Assembly: GCA_964530725.1 (NCBI GenBank)
Contig: CAZGYV010000002.1
Span: forward strand, 26,046-90,045
Reading direction: 5' to 3'
Length of the DNA: 64,000 nt
From: an uncultured Candidatus Saccharibacteria bacterium
GTDB taxonomy: Bacteria > Patescibacteriota > Saccharimonadia > CAILAD01 > CAZGYV01
Below the pieces are notes generated by a model. It made no database searches. It was not told where the DNA came from and saw only the letters and a program-made list of their open reading frames with translations. Both the position numbers and the translations under genes were made by a program. Positions 37,559 through 43,269 of the stretch are shown one piece after another. The first letter of the stretch is position 1. Each line of letters starts with the position of its first letter.

Positions 37559-38908
37559 ATGAAGCAAATTATCACTAAGACTAAAAAGGCCATTAAGCCG
37601 ATCTTGCGGCCTTTGCTCAATCAAGACGTTGTCAATGCCCTGCACTATCCCGAGGCATTAATTGCCGCTCGCCAGGCCCAGCAACCGACCCGCGACATGA
37701 TCGTCATCGGCATTGTTGGCTCCAAGGGCAAAACGACGACGGCCAACATGCTATGGTCGATCTTGCAAGCCTCAGGCCACAAAACTGGCCTGATCGGCAC
37801 TGCCAACATCCGCGTCGGCGACCACGAGGAACTGAATAAATACCACATGACCATGCCCGAGTCATTGGCTCTACAACAAATATTCGCTCGCATGAAAAAA
37901 AGTGATTGCCGCTACGTCGTGCTCGAAGTGCCATCCGAGGGCCAGACCCAGTGGCGCCACATTGGCATTCACTTCGACCTGCTGCTTTTCACTAATGTCA
38001 CTCGCGAGCTGATGGCCAGCCACAAATATTCCCAAGACATTTTGCACCAGCACAACAGCCGGGTTTTCAAATACCTCAAGCGCACTAAAAAGAAGCGTTT
38101 TGACGGCGAGAAGATCGCCAAAACCATCGTTGCCAACGCTGACGCGGCTGATTTTAGCCGTTATTTCAGCTATCCAGCCGAGCATAAATATAGCTTTAGT
38201 ATTCGTAAAAAAAGTGACTTTCGAGCTGAGCACATAAAAAGTACAGCCAGCGGTACCAGCTTTAGCCTGCGCGGCCAAGAGTACGCGATCAACATCGCCG
38301 GGCCGATCAACGTCATCAATGCCACTGGCGCGATTGCGGCGGCGGCCAGCCTTGGCCTTGAGCCAGCCGTAATCGCCCGCGGGCTAGAAAATCTCAAATC
38401 AATCCCCGGTCGAATGGAGGTGATTGAAGCTGGACAGTCATTTAGAGTCATTGTCGATTACGCTCACGAAGAGACCAGCATGACGGCGCTGATGGAAGCG
38501 GGAAAATCGATGCGGCAGGCAGGCTCTAAAATTATCACCCTGCTGGGTGCCGAGGGCGGTGGCCGCGATGAGAAAAAGCGCCCCATTATGGGCAAGATCG
38601 CTGCTAGTACGAGCGACTACGTCGTGATTAGCAATGTCGACCCCTACGATGATGATCCAGCAACTATTATCGAAACCATTGCCGCCGGTGCACGCACTGC
38701 TGGCAAGATCGAGGACAAGAATTTATTTTGCATCGAGGATCGGCGGGCAGGAATTAACAAAGCCCTGTCGCTTGCCGCGGGCGATGATATCGTGCTCATT
38801 ACCGGCAAAGGCTCGGAGCAGTCAATGGTAATTGGCGATAAAAAACTGCCCTGGGATGATCGCCAGGTCGTGCGCGAAGAACTCGAAAAAATTGTCAAAA
38901 CGAATTAA
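37559..38908 (+). CDS. murE: Mur ligase family protein, MurE-like (UDP-MurNAc-tripeptide synthetase)
   Basis: P-loop GIVGSKGKTTT and motifs LEVPSEG, DYAHEE, GAEGGGRDEKKR and ITGKGSEQ. Own TTGATA/TATAAT promoter. Confidence 0.7.
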   Translation: MKQIITKTKKAIKPILRPLLNQDVVNALHYPEALIAARQAQQPTRDMIVIGIVGSKGKTTTANMLWSILQASGHKTGLIGTANIRVGDHEELNKYHMTMPESLALQQIFARMKKSDCRYVVLEVPSEGQTQWRHIGIHFDLLLFTNVTRELMASHKYSQDILHQHNSRVFKYLKRTKKKRFDGEKIAKTIVANADAADFSRYFSYPAEHKYSFSIRKKSDFRAEHIKSTASGTSFSLRGQEYAINIAGPINVINATGAIAAAASLGLEPAVIARGLENLKSIPGRMEVIEAGQSFRVIVDYAHEETSMTALMEAGKSMRQAGSKIITLLGAEGGGRDEKKRPIMGKIAASTSDYVVISNVDPYDDDPATIIETIAAGARTAGKIEDKNLFCIEDRRAGINKALSLAAGDDIVLITGKGSEQSMVIGDKKLPWDDRQVVREELEKIVKTN

Positions 38909-38951
38909 CAAAAATATTGATTTTAGCTCAAATTAATAGTATAATATACTC

Positions 38952-39710
38952 ATGAGAATTACCGAGCTGGCTGAGAAATTAGAGCATTTTGGCCTCAGAG
39001 AGAAAGAAGCAAAAGTCTACCTTGCTTCTTTATTTTTGGGCCCTTCGAGCGTGCAAAAAATCGCTCAAGAAGCCGGCATCAACCGCGCCACCACCTATGT
39101 CGTGCTCGATTCCCTGGCCGAAAACGGCTTAATCTCCCAGTCGCATGAGGGCAAGAAAACCGTCTTTGTCGCCGAAGAGCCGCAGGCTATCGAGAAGCTA
39201 CTGGAGCGTCAGCAAAGGCAAATCGCCGACAACCACCGAGCACTCAGAGAACTACTGCCACGACTAGACGAAATAAGTCGCGTTGCTAAGCCGGGCGCGC
39301 CAGTGGTGCGATTTTACAAGGGTGTCGAGGGAATTTTCAACTCCTTTGACCACGCCCTGCGCCACTCGCCAGCCAAATCGACCATCCTTGGCATTAGCAA
39401 TTACGACGCCGCTCAAAAATACTACGCTGGGCGGGTCTTCAAAGAAAAACCTAAGCGATTAAAGAAAAAAATTTCTTACAAACTACTCTATTCGTCAGCC
39501 AGCGAATCCTATCCGTCAGACAAAAAGAAACTGCGCGAGACTATTCGCCTGGAGACGCCATTTAAGGCCGACATCACCATCTATGATCGTCATGTCTGCT
39601 TTGTCACCTATGACGAAAACGAACCGATCGCGACCATGATCGATAATGCCGACATCGCAGGCGTGATGGCCCAGCTCTTCGAGCTGATCTGGCAAGACCG
39701 CCAAGCCTAA
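38952..39710 (+). CDS. TrmB-family transcriptional regulator
   Basis: N-terminal winged HTH LGLREKEAKVYLASLFLGPSSVQKIAQEAGINRATTYVVLDSLAENGLI and a C-terminal TrmB-type domain. Confidence 0.65.
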   Translation: MRITELAEKLEHFGLREKEAKVYLASLFLGPSSVQKIAQEAGINRATTYVVLDSLAENGLISQSHEGKKTVFVAEEPQAIEKLLERQQRQIADNHRALRELLPRLDEISRVAKPGAPVVRFYKGVEGIFNSFDHALRHSPAKSTILGISNYDAAQKYYAGRVFKEKPKRLKKKISYKLLYSSASESYPSDKKKLRETIRLETPFKADITIYDRHVCFVTYDENEPIATMIDNADIAGVMAQLFELIWQDRQA

Positions 39711-39724
39711 ACTGTCAACTTAGT

Positions 39725-39752
39725 TTGACAAAACATACGAAAATGCTATTAT
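39725..39752 (+). promoter_or_regulatory. sigma70-like promoter of the large ncRNA candidate
   Basis: TTGACA-16/17 nt-TATTAT. Confidence 0.45.
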
Positions 39753-39759
39753 TTTATTA

Positions 39760-40265
39760 TCCGCTGCCCTAGAGTAGCGGCGCCCTATCCCTACCCAAGG
39801 GAGTAAACATGAGGTTAACAAAGGTGGGTGGCGACTCGTAGTCGTCGTTTCGATCTAAGAAGCGTTAAGCTGATTTTCAAGGCATCTATCAGGCCAGAGA
39901 TGGCATGATAGCAATTATTTAGGTGGCAAGCCTTGAAGCCAGCTGCTGCCGAGTGGATGCCTTAAGCCTTCCCTGCCCCCATAAGCGTCTAATGGCGCCA
40001 GGGCAGATGTGGCGAAAAAGGAGTGGCAACCACGAGCAAAAGCTTCGATGAGTGATTGAGACACGATAGTCGTCACATCATAGAGCAGTAACTGGCGCGA
40101 TGAGCTAAAAGCGCCTGCCAACAAGATTGGCAGTGCGAAAAGCCCAAGCGCGCCGACTCCTCAAGAAAGCGAGCCACCCGCTAACAAAAGTGCTTTGACG
40201 GCAGCACTCCGAAATGCCGTCTCACTTAGCAGCCTTATCGACCTTGTTGTCGATAGGCTGTTTTT
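39760..40265 (+). ncRNA. ~500-nt structured non-coding RNA candidate of unknown class, promoter- and terminator-bounded
   Basis: No + ORF of 60 aa or more and no RBS-led ORF. Ends in the terminator ccttatcgac-cttgtt-gtcgatagg-ctgTTTTT (40233-40265). Long-range complementarity GGUGGGUGGC (~39835) / GCCACCCGCU (~40190), and the 5' GCUGCC pairs with the 3' GGCAGC. Several internal hairpins. Confidence 0.45.
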
Positions 40266-40364
40266 ACATACCCAAGTCGATATTTATGTTAATTATTTTT
40301 GACTGTTTTATAGGTGTTTTATTAAGATTATTTAACTTTTTTATGATTTTTTTGTCAATTTTAC

Positions 40365-40393
40365 TTGACAGTTTTTTGATAGTTAATTATACT
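40365..40393 (+). promoter_or_regulatory. sigma70-like promoter upstream of the small-peptide cluster
   Basis: TTGACA-17 nt-TATACT. The downstream leader has G/C-rich hairpins (ggaggggttggttg...cagccgaacccctcc). Confidence 0.45.
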
Positions 40394-40580
40394 CTTATTA
40401 TCTATCGCAAATGATAGAGTACGTTGACCGAAACGGAGGGGTTGGTTGAAAACTAAAAAACCAGCCGAACCCCTCCCCTCTCCAGGGGAGGAGGTGGATA
40501 TAGATCCGCTCACAACCGGACCGTGGTTGTGATGTTAGTAGCTCTTTAGTTAGCCACAGGCACTACGAAAGGATGCCAAA

Positions 40581-40760
40581 ATGTGTGATGACCTAGAAGA
40601 AACTCCTCCTGATACAGGCACAAACATCTGTGACCTATCAGATATTTCCACTGGCAGTCCAAGAGACTACGCCGGTGGAGATTGTAACGACGACAACGTG
40701 GGCTTCTTCGAGCCCAGACGAGCCGTAGAACGACAAGGAGCGCTCGCGAGAGCGGCGTAA
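40581..40760 (+). CDS. Small acidic Cys-containing peptide (59 aa), first of three tandem small ORFs
   Basis: MCDDLEETPPDTGTNICDLSDISTGSPRDYAGGDCNDDNVGFFEPRRAVERQGALARAA. Below the 60-aa track threshold, found by reading. Confidence 0.35.
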   Translation: MCDDLEETPPDTGTNICDLSDISTGSPRDYAGGDCNDDNVGFFEPRRAVERQGALARAA

Positions 40761-40761
40761 A

Positions 40762-40857
40762 ATGTTGCCCTGTCCAGAAGATGGGCTATGGTGCAGTCCT
40801 GGCCCAGACGACATCGAGGAATTCTTCCCGACAGAAGGAGGAAGCGATCCTCTCTAA
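40762..40857 (+). CDS. Small acidic Cys-containing peptide (31 aa)
   Basis: MLPCPEDGLWCSPGPDDIEEFFPTEGGSDPL. Starts 1 nt after the previous stop. Shares the EEFFP/GFFEP motif with the first peptide. Confidence 0.3.
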   Translation: MLPCPEDGLWCSPGPDDIEEFFPTEGGSDPL

Positions 40858-40895
40858 CCAGACATGTTAGTATCGCCTACTACAAGGAGATAAAA

Positions 40896-40985
40896 ATGGC
40901 TGACGTCGAATACGACAACGGCACCGGCGAGATGGACGAGTGGGACGGAGCCAACTGGGGCTTCGGCGGCTCTTCCCCTAAGTGA
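40896..40985 (+). CDS. Small acidic peptide (29 aa) with a strong RBS
   Basis: AAGGAG-7 nt-ATG. Product MADVEYDNGTGEMDEWDGANWGFGGSSPK. It is the C-terminal part of track ORF 40788..40985. Confidence 0.4.
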   Translation: MADVEYDNGTGEMDEWDGANWGFGGSSPK

Positions 40986-41011
40986 CCAAGTAGTCACCGG
41001 TTAATTACCAC

Positions 41012-41047
41012 GGACACGAGACAAGAACTCGTGTCCGTTTTTATTTT
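41012..41047 (+). terminator. Intrinsic terminator after the small-peptide cluster
   Basis: ggacacgag-acaagaa-ctcgtgtcc followed by GTTTTTATTTT. Confidence 0.55.
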
Positions 41048-41171
41048 CCTCTTGATACCTATAAGCATTAATGGTATAATGTGGATTGTAATATCGGCAT
41101 GTGACGTTTTGGGACAACTTCTCAAAAAACAGCACAACCGGATTGGCACCACAACCTGGGAGGTAAAGACA

Positions 41172-41390
41172 ATGGAGGGCATCCAATTGGATGTGAGTTG
41201 GCCGCTGCTCGTGACCGCCGTCGTCGGCATCATCACGCTCTGGTCGGTCTTGACGGGCCTGAAGGAGCACGAGCTGCGTAAGTACCGTGCTGCCCAGGAA
41301 GAGACCCAAGCTCGCTACGAGGAGCTCGAACGTCTCCACTTCCAACCCCATCCACCCCAACCCACCCATCGTCTCAAGTCGGTGGGGTAA
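41172..41390 (+). CDS. Small single-TM membrane protein (72 aa)
   Basis: GGGAGG RBS. Product MEGIQLDVSWPLLVTAVVGIITLWSVLTGLKEHELRKYRAAQEETQARYEELERLHFQPHPPQPTHRLKSVG. Followed by a two-hairpin terminator (41407-41503). Confidence 0.45.
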   Translation: MEGIQLDVSWPLLVTAVVGIITLWSVLTGLKEHELRKYRAAQEETQARYEELERLHFQPHPPQPTHRLKSVG

Positions 41391-41462
41391 AAAAAAGGAT
41401 CGTTTGGTAGTCGGGCATTCGCTGCAATGCCAAATAGCCGCCCGGCTACCAAGCACAAAAAA

Positions 41463-41503
41463 CCAGCCTCACAAAATCACAAGTGGCTGGTTTACTTTTT
41501 TTA
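41463..41503 (+). terminator. Intrinsic terminator after the small membrane protein gene
   Basis: ccagcc-loop-ggctgg followed by TTTACTTTTTTTATT. Preceded by a second hairpin ggtagtcggg...cccggctacc. Confidence 0.5.
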
Positions 41504-41671: not shown

Positions 41672-41899
41672 TTAGTCGTCTGACGACATGATGATGGCTG
41701 GTGACTTGTCTTCGGCACACGGACCGGTGTAGAAAGCCACACTCAGCCCGACGGCGCTGCTAGACATGATCATACCGTGGTGACAATGAACGTGATGGCT
41801 GACCTCGTCGTCGACCGCGCTGCGCATAGCGCGCATGGCGGACGCTTGATCGGGTAACCCTGAGGCGATATCGCCTTCGACCGTGGTGACCTTGAACAC
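41672..41899 (-). CDS. Small hypothetical His/Cys-rich ORF
   Basis: 75 aa with HHVHCHHG. GTG start, no clear RBS. Confidence 0.2.
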   Translation of the reverse strand: MFKVTTVEGDIASGLPDQASAMRAMRSAVDDEVSHHVHCHHGMIMSSSAVGLSVAFYTGPCAEDKSPAIIMSSDD

Positions 41900-42032: not shown

Positions 42033-42350
42033 TTATTGGCGATGATTTTTTTGAGTTCGCTTCGATTTTCGGCGCAGAACAAGTCGCGATCGTTCGCCGC
42101 GGCGATAGCTAACCATCACTAAAACCACCGACATAATGACGACAAACGGCAAACTAGCCAGCAGCGTCTCGGCGATCGGGCGCGAGTAGTCATCGATACT
42201 GACTACGTAGGTGATAAGAACAGTCAAACAAACCGCCACAAACAACCAGCCCCGCCAGGTCGACGGCGCAAAGCCCCAGCCAAAGCGCTTGTTCTTAAAC
42301 CAGACTTTGCGGCCAAATATATGATTTTTTGCTGTCATTCGCGCATCCAA
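42033..42350 (-). CDS. Hypothetical two-TM membrane protein
   Basis: KNHIFGRKVWFKNKRFGWGFAPSTWRGW followed by two hydrophobic helices and a basic C-terminus. Confidence 0.5.
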   Translation of the reverse strand: MDARMTAKNHIFGRKVWFKNKRFGWGFAPSTWRGWLFVAVCLTVLITYVVSIDDYSRPIAETLLASLPFVVIMSVVLVMVSYRRGERSRLVLRRKSKRTQKNHRQ

Positions 42351-42474: not shown

Positions 42475-43269
42475 ATGATTCGAGCGAGTCGTGACTATTT
42501 GCTGCCGGGCGAGGTGGCCAAGCTGCTTTTCGTCAGCCCTAAAACGATTAGCCGCTGGGCAGACAAGGGATATCTGCCTTACGCCCTAACACCCGAGGGT
42601 CATCGTCGCTTCGACAGGGTTGAGATTTACAGAATTCGCGACGAACTAACTGGTGGCAAACCTAAGCAAGCTCCAAAGGGCACTGAGAGCCAGTCGTCGA
42701 ACCTGCCCATCCTGCTTCTGACCGGGCCGTCGGGCGTCGGCAAGGATACGGTGCTCAGAGCGCTCATCAAGCACCATCCATCGAGGTTGGCCGGAATGGT
42801 CTCGGCCACGACACGGCAACCAAGGAAGGGCGAATGTGACGGTAGGGACTACTTTTTTATCAAAGAGTCTGAATTTCGGCTGATGGAGGCGGCTGGCGAA
42901 TTCGTTGAAACTACCAGATTCAATGGTGTTCGCTACGGCACACCAAAAAGCGAGCTTGACCGCATCAGCAGGGACGGCAAGCAAGCCATTCTGTGCTGCG
43001 ACACGGCCGGTGTCGATAACCTGATCGCGCTCGGCGTGTCATTTCGAGCCGTTTTCCTCGATGTCACAACCCGTGTCCAGGCCCAGCGCATATGCACGCG
43101 CGATCCTCAGATCAGCGAAGCCGAGCTCAACGGACGGCTGCTGAGATCGAGTGATGAGAAAGCCTGGCTCGGACACCGTATCGGGCACCTACCAATTTGG
43201 CCGGTGACAAACAACGGCGAGCTTGAAGAAACCCTGCGGCGGGTCGAGGAGATCTTCGACTTGGCTTAA
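42475..43269 (+). CDS. gmk: Fusion protein: N-terminal excisionase/MerR-type HTH plus guanylate kinase
   Basis: Residues 10-60 LLPGEVAKLLFVSPKTISRWADKGYLPYALTPEGHRRFDRVEI form an HTH_17/excisionase-like domain. Then the Gmk P-loop LLLTGPSGVGKDT, SATTRQPRKGECDGRDYFFI and the GMP-binding region. Confidence 0.7.
   Translation: MIRASRDYLLPGEVAKLLFVSPKTISRWADKGYLPYALTPEGHRRFDRVEIYRIRDELTGGKPKQAPKGTESQSSNLPILLLTGPSGVGKDTVLRALIKHHPSRLAGMVSATTRQPRKGECDGRDYFFIKESEFRLMEAAGEFVETTRFNGVRYGTPKSELDRISRDGKQAILCCDTAGVDNLIALGVSFRAVFLDVTTRVQAQRICTRDPQISEAELNGRLLRSSDEKAWLGHRIGHLPIWPVTNNGELEETLRRVEEIFDLA

Follow-up and report, generated by a model that had tools for sequence, protein, structure and literature searches.

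The 64-kb stretch of DNA analysed here (64,000 nucleotides of contig CAZGYV010000002.1 from an uncultivated member of the Saccharibacteria, hereafter the window) carries, between the genes for a TrmB-like regulator (38952-39710) and guanylate kinase (Gmk; 42475-43269), a 2.7-kb stretch without long open reading frames (ORFs) in which a cluster of very small peptide genes is found. This region is divided into three promoter-to-terminator units, namely an apparently structured RNA (U1), a peptide operon and a membrane-protein unit. Judged by comparison with the sequences of related genomes, the cluster is a real, conserved and clade-restricted set of unannotated tiny genes representing a new orphan microprotein family, with pepA, pepC, the 31-amino acid (aa) ORF and the 72-aa ORF very probably coding. 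We give about an even chance to the broader reading, in which the region is a vertically inherited, clade-restricted operon for four or five very small acidic proteins together with a separately transcribed gene for a 72-aa membrane protein. The products of the operon would be pepA, a pepB that has been rearranged and split into ORFs of 59 and 31 aa, and pepC. The features of the peptide operon and the membrane-protein unit are as follows, with positions given in the window and L numbers denoting loci from other genomes.

40365-40393, + strand: promoter of the peptide operon, TTGACA-17-TATACT, matching 11 of 12 consensus positions
40401-40418, + strand: conserved 5′-terminal stem-loop of the peptide-operon transcript, TCTATC-N6-GATAGA
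40435-40476, + strand: GC-rich hairpin over the pepA start (-23.4 kcal/mol, z -5.0)
40446-40532, + strand: pepA, 28 aa, TTG start, MKTKKPAEPLPSPGEEVDIDPLTTGPWL; homologues in L001, L005, L089, L093 and L035
40581-40760, + strand: ORF1, 59 aa, acidic, three Cys, Shine-Dalgarno AAAGGA; best of six frames, no significant homologue
40762-40857, + strand: ORF2, 31 aa, ATG 1 nt after the ORF1 TAA; pepB core with permuted motif order
40896-40985, + strand: pepC, 29 aa, MADVEYDNGTGEMDEWDGANWGFGGSSPK, strong Shine-Dalgarno AAGGAG; E=2.1e-8 with a profile built from the relatives only
41010-41047, + strand: intrinsic terminator of the peptide operon (-18.9 kcal/mol, z -6.0)
41052-41080, + strand: promoter of the membrane-protein unit, TTGATA-17-TATAAT, TG-extended, without the palindrome described below
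41172-41390, + strand: 72-aa protein with a single transmembrane helix at the N-terminus and a charged tail at the C-terminus; homologues at the equivalent position in L001, L005 and L089
41461-41502, + strand: terminator of the membrane-protein unit (-13.8 kcal/mol, z -3.7)

The initial annotation, made from the window sequence, had described a promoter-driven cluster of three tiny acidic, Cys-containing peptide genes and a small membrane protein, each module with its own terminator. Both promoter and terminator pairs were located (40365-40393 with 41010-41047 and 41052-41080 with 41461-41502), the peptides are indeed acidic (pI 4.0-4.5), and the ORFs of 59, 31 and 29 aa lie where they had been placed, two with ribosome-binding sites (AAAGGA for the 59-aa and AAGGAG for the 29-aa ORF) and the 31-aa ORF starting 1 nt past the preceding TAA. 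The single-span membrane protein downstream was likewise recovered, with one hydrophobic span. The count of three was too low, pepA having been missed, and there are four or five such genes. The GC-rich leader does form a stable hairpin but is not purely non-coding, as it encodes pepA.

Conservation and coding capacity of the peptide genes

The window comes from the Saccharibacteria/Saccharimonadia (Patescibacteria, Candidate Phyla Radiation, CPR), its best protein relatives being labelled Saccharimonadales or Saccharibacteria by their source. Exact look-ups with its TrmB-like protein and its 72-aa protein found no identical record, and a first genome scan with the single TrmB-like protein as query returned zero relatives. 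A TrmB-like protein search yielded three clusters at approximately 60% protein identity, the contigs of which fall into two syntenic lineages, L001-L004 (including GCA_041906885.1) and L005-L007 with L089, with L005 and L089 forming a close pair (98% identity). A third, partial lineage (L093, 630 nt) was retrieved by a pepB search, and L008, a 2.6-kb ENA contig from the same organism as the window, ends before the peptide genes. Only about four independent lineages are available. Synteny between the TrmB-like and Gmk genes is kept in L001-L007 and L089 with the gene order of the window, the relatives carrying three units in this space with nearly identical promoter hexamers and with terminators present. 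At the peptide operon the hexamers are identical in L001 (17-nt spacer) and L089 (16-nt spacer). The initial annotation had taken a higher GC content as a sign of acquisition. The GC content of the peptide region (0.52-0.55) is normal for coding sequence here, the surrounding genes having 0.50-0.61 and only the AT-rich promoter spacers being lower (0.37-0.43), while the presence of the cluster at the same TrmB-like/Gmk position in the relatives argues for vertical descent.

As 3 kb of this region holds 57 ORFs of at least 20 aa, it is conservation in the relatives and not the ORFs themselves that argues against chance. Nucleotide similarity between the lineages is nearly undetectable except in the promoter/leader and pepC, yet the peptides align and the tblastx hits are in-frame. 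Differences in the peptide genes concentrate at third codon positions, and starts, stops and Shine-Dalgarno sites are retained across the lineages. Profiles built from the relatives only ranked the window copies of pepA (E=2.5e-4), pepC and the 72-aa ORF (E=7e-3) first among the 2826 six-frame stop-to-stop ORFs of the window. Reading-frame conservation in the relatives, on which the initial annotation had staked the coding character of the cluster, was found for pepC, the 31-aa ORF and the membrane protein. The selection ratios that it had proposed as a check point the same way, with nonsynonymous to synonymous ratios from proportions of differences (pN/pS) of 0.18-0.37 for pepC, 0.34-0.52 for pepA, 0.40-0.83 for the pepB core and about 0.6 for the membrane protein, against 0.19-0.33 for the TrmB-like reference at the same (saturated) divergence. 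Between L005 and L093 (79% nucleotide identity), the corresponding ratio of substitution rates (dN/dS) was 0.29 for pepA, 0.27 for pepB codons 1-46 and 0.24 for the gene that comes next. Codon usage, scored with a model trained on the long genes of the window, was gene-like for pepC and acceptable for pepA, and that of the 72-aa ORF is also gene-like.

It is highly improbable that the transcript is a non-coding or regulatory RNA in which the small ORFs are incidental. The well-folded 5′ 186 nt of the peptide-operon transcript (z -4.6 against shuffles), the pepA start buried in a hairpin, the weak codon scores of ORF1 and ORF2 and the apparently structured RNA next door would all suit such an RNA, but it would leave unexplained why peptides align where nucleotides barely do, with changes at third positions and with starts, stops and Shine-Dalgarno sites kept in all lineages, and why identical motifs of 7 and 5 aa use different codons. 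Rfam gave zero matches for the window, L001 and L005, except for one tRNA elsewhere in the window and one sub-threshold small RNA match.

The family appears confined to a narrow clade. A pepB profile found three clusters among 5.8 billion (5.8e9) proteins in a word-indexed search and two clusters among 1.84 billion cluster representatives in an exhaustive search in which every sequence was scored, in both cases within the known clade only. Scanning 80 species-level GTDB Patescibacteria loci, fetched by a TrmB-like profile, with the peptide profiles and motifs revealed related genes at L035 only, where a pepA-like ORF (…LAEPLPSP…EDIPWK) and a weak pepC-like ORF are present. A scan of JGI metagenomes, with a neighbouring 105-aa membrane protein as handle, gave 12 distant loci in which the peptides are absent, and a scan of IMG/VR for pepB gave nothing. 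No match to any peptide or to the membrane protein was found in Pfam, NCBIfam, PADLOC or PHROGs (E<=0.5-1), and literature searches on UCP032817 and on small proteins of Saccharibacteria gave nothing specific.

pepA and pepC

In the relatives pepA encodes 28-34 aa with the consensus M-x-K-x-x-KPAEP[LI]P-x-x-G[DE]. The window copy starts at a TTG 4 nt past the Shine-Dalgarno sequence GGAGGGG, both of which are base-paired with pepA codons 6-11 in the hairpin at 40435-40476, whereas in the relatives the ribosome-binding site of pepA is separate, unpaired and further downstream. The hairpin would therefore probably damp or condition translation of pepA in the window genome. Cofactor precursors of the PqqA type are marked by a conserved E-x-x-x-Y core and by pqq genes; pepA was rejected as such a precursor, as KKPA...GEEV is present but there is no conserved Tyr and pqq genes are absent nearby. 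The acidic-[IP]W end of pepA may resemble the SSB tail, a likeness of value as a lead only.

In the relatives pepC encodes 29-36 aa with the consensus [DN]G[TD]G[EQ]MDxxDxAN[WQ]GxG, and the window copy shares 74% aa identity with that of L005 at a pN/pS of 0.18. A possible lead for pepC is the calcium loop of the EF-hand/DxDxDG type, which follows D-x-[DN]-x-[DNST]-G-x-[ILVM]-x-x-x-[DE], the first residue being Asp. The pepC segment xD[ND]G[TD]G[EQ]MDxxD fits positions 3-12 of this loop, with position 1 being Tyr in three of four sequences and with no Pfam match.

A probably rearranged pepB

In the relatives pepB is a single gene of 69-79 aa, the ATG of which overlaps the pepA stop. Its product has the C[FY]PEP unit twice, with GPD[DE] after the second copy, and over its first 46 aa is 83% identical between L005 and L093, against 35% in the tail. 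In the window its place is taken by ORF1 and ORF2. ORF2 (ML-PCPED-GLW-CSPGPDDIEE-FFPTEGGSDPL) contains CSPGPDDI, resembling C[FY]PEPGPD[DE][IT] of the relatives, and FFP-TEGGSDPL, resembling CFPEP-TEEGGSDPL of L093, in the reverse of the order found in the relatives. Over 18 motif codons compared with L093, five are identical, 12 are synonymous (including AGC against TCA for Ser) and one is nonsynonymous, a pattern that would be difficult to account for without translation of this frame. Local alignments of ORF2 outscored shuffled controls at both nucleotide and protein level, and the relatives-only pepB profile placed ORF2 first of the 2826 window ORFs, but at E=0.47.

ORF1 is probably a rearranged pepB copy, in which a tail ending ...GGDCNDD has been fused to NVGFFEP, and is regarded as a putative gene. 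The GGDCNDD of ORF1 includes an exact 12-nt match, TGTAACGACGAC, to the end (...YGCNDD-stop) of L093 pepB, and the NVGFFEP that directly follows it may be compared with NVDCFPEP near the start of L001 pepB. Both ORFs are most simply read as the outcome of a tandem pepB duplication, after which fusion, deletions and creation of the stop/restart junction TAAaATG would have left the two in different frames. ORF2 would be translated by coupling to ORF1. As GFFEP of ORF1 and EFFPTEGG of ORF2 both match CFPEP(TEEGG) of the relatives, they appear to be two versions of one ancestral unit. This revises the suggestion of the initial annotation that GFFEP, EEFFPTEGG and NWGFGG are shared among the peptides, with the first two being this single unit and NWGFGG of pepC unrelated to either; no two of the window peptides are significantly similar.

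The split pepB may be in decay, given the poor codon scores of ORF1 and ORF2 and the lack of a significant homologue for ORF1. A version of events in which the two ORFs are merely the wreck of a single pepB, with only pepA, pepC and the membrane protein still functional here, is possible but the less favoured one. The relatives keep one pepB that overlaps the pepA stop where the window has a 48-nt gap with stops, and the +1 frame change between ORF1 and ORF2, the Cys and Pro codons deleted from the motifs and the low codon scores are all in keeping with decay. On the other hand both ORFs are intact, ORF1 has its own Shine-Dalgarno sequence, the ORF2 start 1 nt past the ORF1 stop is a typical coupling junction, and the excess of synonymous over nonsynonymous change (12 against one) in the ORF2 motifs speaks against a pseudogene.

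The membrane-protein unit

The homologues of the 72-aa protein in the relatives have 45-73 aa, with one transmembrane helix followed by E[KR]ER-x-x-RK, and are likewise encoded after a terminator and a new promoter. A 151-aa antisense ORF (41001-41456) was rejected as a real gene, as it spans the terminator and the promoter and the conserved ORF is the sense one.

A TrmB-like regulator and its putative operator

The regulator gene and the U1 unit upstream of the peptide operon contain the following features.

38893-38910: palindrome-like site TGTCAAAACGAATTAACA with one mismatch, located 59 nt ahead of the TrmB-like start codon; candidate operator for autoregulation
38952-39710, + strand: TrmB-like winged-helix regulator, 252 aa (Pfam PF01978, 5.7e-14)
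39713-39730: perfect palindrome TGTCAA-N6-TTGACA over the U1 -35 box
39755-40265, + strand: U1 unit, structured transcript of approximately 500 nt, with a near-consensus, TG-extended promoter (39725-39752) and a strong terminator (40229-40265)
39809-39841, + strand: U1 mini-ORF, 10 codons, MRLTKVGGDS*, conserved in relatives
40353-40370: perfect palindrome TGTCAATTTTACTTGACA overlapping the -35 box of the peptide operon; conserved in L001, L005 and L089

The -35 boxes of U1 and of the peptide operon are the right half of TGTCAA-N6-TTGACA. The 64 kb contain three such sites where 0.11 would be expected, and all three belong to the TrmB-like locus. The same arrangement is seen in L001, L005 and L035, in which the TrmB-like gene is preceded at 40-58 nt by equivalent sites with one or two mismatches. 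TrmB-like homologues occur throughout the Patescibacteria, and of the 23 perfect palindromes in 829 kb from 80 other Patescibacteria loci, 18 follow the TrmB-like stop codon at a distance of 16-1310 nt. Since the palindrome overlaps the -35 boxes of the peptide operon and U1 and precedes the TrmB-like gene, it is likely to be the operator of the TrmB-like protein. Bound over the -35 boxes, this protein would keep U1 and the peptide operon repressed until released by a signal. The palindrome beside the TrmB-like gene in many Patescibacteria may prove the more general result, predicting the operator and local regulon of a regulator conserved across the phylum.

In L013, L041, L048-L052, L058, L069, L072, L077, L082, L086 and L087 the palindrome is often extended to TTTTGTCAA...TTGACAAAA. 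In distant Patescibacteria it is found directly after the TrmB-like gene and again 350-700 nt after it, often ahead of stretches without obvious genes.

The U1 unit

U1 appears to be a structured RNA, folding far better than shuffled sequences (z -5.6) and containing no plausible protein gene. Conservation of U1 in L001, L005 and L089/L090 covers approximately its first 120 nt, where the first hairpin shows compensatory changes. A covariance model of this 5′ domain found no copies outside the clade, and U1 has no Rfam match. The conserved mini-ORF reads MGMIKVGGGI*, MGISRMGGDI* and MRYTKVGTGI* in the relatives, with its GGGAG-type ribosome-binding site placed within the 3′ arm of a CCC/GGG hairpin. 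U1 was rejected as a transfer-messenger RNA (tmRNA) or RNase P RNA, with no ARAGORN or Rfam match and the conserved motifs absent.

In other Patescibacteria, ORFs of 3-8 codons are found at the equivalent place after the TrmB-like gene (MKKSGGNW* in L077, MNW* in L051 and MDGI* in L013). The U1 interiors of approximately 400 nt in L005 (10840-11224) and L089 (3805-4134) are unrelated, despite approximately 98% identity between the two loci from the U1 terminator onwards, while the more distant L001 has an interior that shares 80% identity with the one in L005, and a third, unrelated interior is found in the window. The pattern resembles the exchange of a cassette within a unit whose ends are conserved.

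The PF27765 protein of sister lineages

Between pepB and pepC, the loci L005, L089 and L093 have a 229-aa gene for a PF27765 "UCP032817-like" domain with a Cys/Asp-rich tail, and in L035 a PF27765 homologue is divergently transcribed from the pepA-like ORF with a common palindromic promoter. The genes for these UCP032817-like proteins were placed as follows.

L005, 11826-12515: PF27765 gene
L089, 4736-5425: PF27765 gene
L035, 7325-7990, - strand: PF27765 gene

Their signature is GWHTF…FC…AGR.IHH.P, with GWHTF...FC.R invariant and IHH.P conserved in all members reaching it, and their C-terminal tails are of low complexity and rich in Cys, Asp and Gly, for example CDCDSGNGPDFNCTCC and GCGKCSNCNNGWCNGH. 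Only three clusters were retrieved. An AlphaFold (AF2) model was weak and all-helical, with a predicted local distance difference test score (pLDDT) of 61, and neither a PDB match by sequence or fold nor a detectable enzyme relative was found. Gene neighbourhood suggests that this protein may be one likely partner of the peptides. Shorter members of PF27765 (154-155 aa) occur in other contexts, and the contexts of two distant members are without peptide genes.

Possible functions of the peptides

The peptides have 5-13 acidic against 0-5 basic residues and negative hydropathy and are rich in Pro, Gly, Asp/Glu and single aromatic residues. They show no signal peptide, double-glycine leader, leader-cleavage motif or hydrophobic segment, with GG present only near the C-termini of pepC and ORF2. 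Pfam analysis of the 20 neighbouring genes over 29.8-52.0 kb revealed no exporter, protease or maturase within ±10 kb of the cluster, no kinase or response regulator nearby and no radical-SAM, YcaO, LanB/C/M, ATP-grasp, peptidase or ABC-exporter gene in this part of the 64-kb window, in agreement with the initial annotation, which had noted no modification enzyme nearby. As the peptides are acidic, hydrophilic and leaderless with no export or maturation genes near, intracellular microproteins are favoured over bacteriocins or secreted signals. They would stay in the cytoplasm as disordered microproteins, with short conserved motifs (KPAEP[LI]P, the repeated C[FY]PEP units and GxGxMDxxDxANWGxG) docking onto larger partner proteins, although this intracellular motif-docking mode of action is put forward only tentatively.

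A number of observations weigh against this picture. The microprotein function and the partnership with PF27765 were derived from composition and gene neighbourhood only, the PF27765 gene is absent from the 64-kb window and from the 18 kb of L001 examined, and a conserved N-terminal part with a hypervariable tail fits precursors of ribosomally synthesised and post-translationally modified peptides (RiPPs) equally well. The selection estimates rest on few substitutions, there being so few independent lineages, and L005 and L089 differ over pepA-C by four nonsynonymous changes and one synonymous change, too few to gauge selection. ORF1 has no significant homologue and was not recovered by the relatives-only pepB profile, its codon score being at the 4th percentile of real genes; the scores of ORF1 and ORF2 are both poor, though each is the best of its six frames. 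The motif alignment of ORF2 was picked by eye, after the fact. At the promoters, part of the conservation of the palindrome is promoter conservation, because the palindrome contains the -35 hexamer.

The strongest competitor to cytoplasmic microproteins, though an unlikely one, is that the peptides are RiPP-like precursors, with N-terminal leaders, variable Cys/Asp/Gly-rich cores and maturation enzymes encoded elsewhere, possibly including PF27765. In keeping with this the N-terminus is conserved and the C-terminus fast-changing in pepB (83% against 35%), pepA and pepC, a pattern not restricted to RiPPs, the repetition of the C[FY]PEP unit resembles that in multi-core precursors, and a PF27765 gene with a Cys-rich tail is part of the operon in L005, L089 and L093 and its neighbour in L035. 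However, no maturation, peptidase or ABC-exporter gene is present in 29.8-52.0 kb, PF27765 is missing from the window and its all-helical model shows no enzyme relative or PDB match, and the peptides have zero matches among the precursor families of NCBIfam or Pfam. CPR genomes are in addition very small and poor in secondary metabolism. More speculative still, and rather improbable, is a clade-specific multi-precursor peptide system switched on by a sugar-sensing TrmB-like repressor, with PF27765 processing the motif-repeat, Cys-containing peptides or assembling with them, to yield a modified product or complex for an episymbiotic lifestyle; if true, this would provide a new peptide class and the first function for PF27765.

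The initial annotation had drawn an analogy with bacteriocin/immunity or signalling-peptide loci, in which the peptides would be exported to act on other cells and the 72-aa protein would serve as immunity protein or sensor. Beyond the layout, small peptide genes and then a small membrane-protein gene, each with its own terminator, little recommends this reading and it is very improbable, the peptides being acidic and hydrophilic with no leader and no amphipathic or cationic region, export and signalling genes being absent nearby, PADLOC, PHROGs, Pfam and NCBIfam giving no match, and the membrane-protein promoter being separate and without the palindrome.

Genomic setting

The neighbours in the window are ordinary chromosomal genes, for a Mur ligase, the TrmB-like regulator, the guanylate kinase with its helix-turn-helix (HTH) domain, Dus and LytR-CpsA-Psr, as well as arginase, a serine hydrolase, a DNA-alkylation repair protein, an AI-2E transporter and a glycosyltransferase. 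At 42475-43269 (+ strand) an HTH_17/MerR-type DNA-binding domain and guanylate kinase are joined in one 264-aa ORF, which in L001, L003 and L005 corresponds to two adjacent genes of 67-68 aa and 190-194 aa. A 75-aa ORF at 41672-41899 (- strand) with a His/Cys cluster, HHVHCHHG, matches in position the 83-91-aa genes of the relatives, with which it is not alignable (8-25% identity). The 105-aa two-helix membrane protein at 42033-42350 (- strand), with a Trp/Gly/Lys-rich N-terminus (GRKxWFKxKRxGWG), has 50-53% identity within the clade and 31-40% in JGI metagenomes and no family assignment. In L013 (9444-9789), L048 (8915-8985), L051 (9604-9730) and L077 (11616-11774) the TrmB-like gene is followed, at a distance of 2-5 kb, by a tmRNA gene; none was found in the 64-kb window.

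Comparison with known systems

Class II bacteriocin and immunity loci resemble the cluster in having small peptide genes followed by a small membrane-protein gene. Class II bacteriocins, however, are cationic or amphipathic peptides with a double-glycine or Sec leader and are encoded beside an ABC exporter, and the cluster shows none of these traits. The likeness to RiPP precursor clusters lies in the tiny ORFs in a row, the conserved N-terminal and hypervariable Cys-containing C-terminal parts and the repeated motif, with the difference that no maturase, protease or exporter is near, no precursor family is matched and the associated PF27765 is without a recognisable enzyme fold. The 72-aa protein shares with type I toxin-like membrane proteins its small size, single membrane pass and own promoter and terminator, but has a long charged cytoplasmic tail, a position conserved beside a peptide operon and no family match, and no promoter for an antisense RNA, as in type I toxin-like systems, was found at the 72-aa gene.

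Operators of the TrmB family include the TGM of the Thermococcales, an inverted repeat near promoters. As in TrmB-family regulons, the regulator gene here adjoins promoters with an inverted repeat overlapping core elements, including its own promoter. The sequence of the putative operator is different, however, and instead of genes of sugar metabolism its putative targets are an RNA and a set of tiny ORFs.

Genome annotation systematically overlooks small proteins, and does so most in uncultivated CPR bacteria, where genomes are so small that genes without a use can hardly be accommodated. The locus would therefore be a compact example of lineage-specific microprotein biology in which tiny genes, a membrane protein and a structured RNA are apparently tied to one regulator. 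Cytosolic microproteins that regulate larger proteins are known from bacteria, such as Sda, MciZ and SgrT, and NblD and AcnSP in cyanobacteria (reviews such as PMC10730256). The peptides described here differ from these in having no sequence relation to them, in being encoded by four or five genes per operon, in being strongly acidic and rich in Pro, Gly and aromatic residues and in having a partner that is only a candidate. They resemble them in size (28-60 aa), in the lack of an export signal, in having their own ribosome-binding sites, in having been overlooked by annotation and in a putatively regulated promoter.

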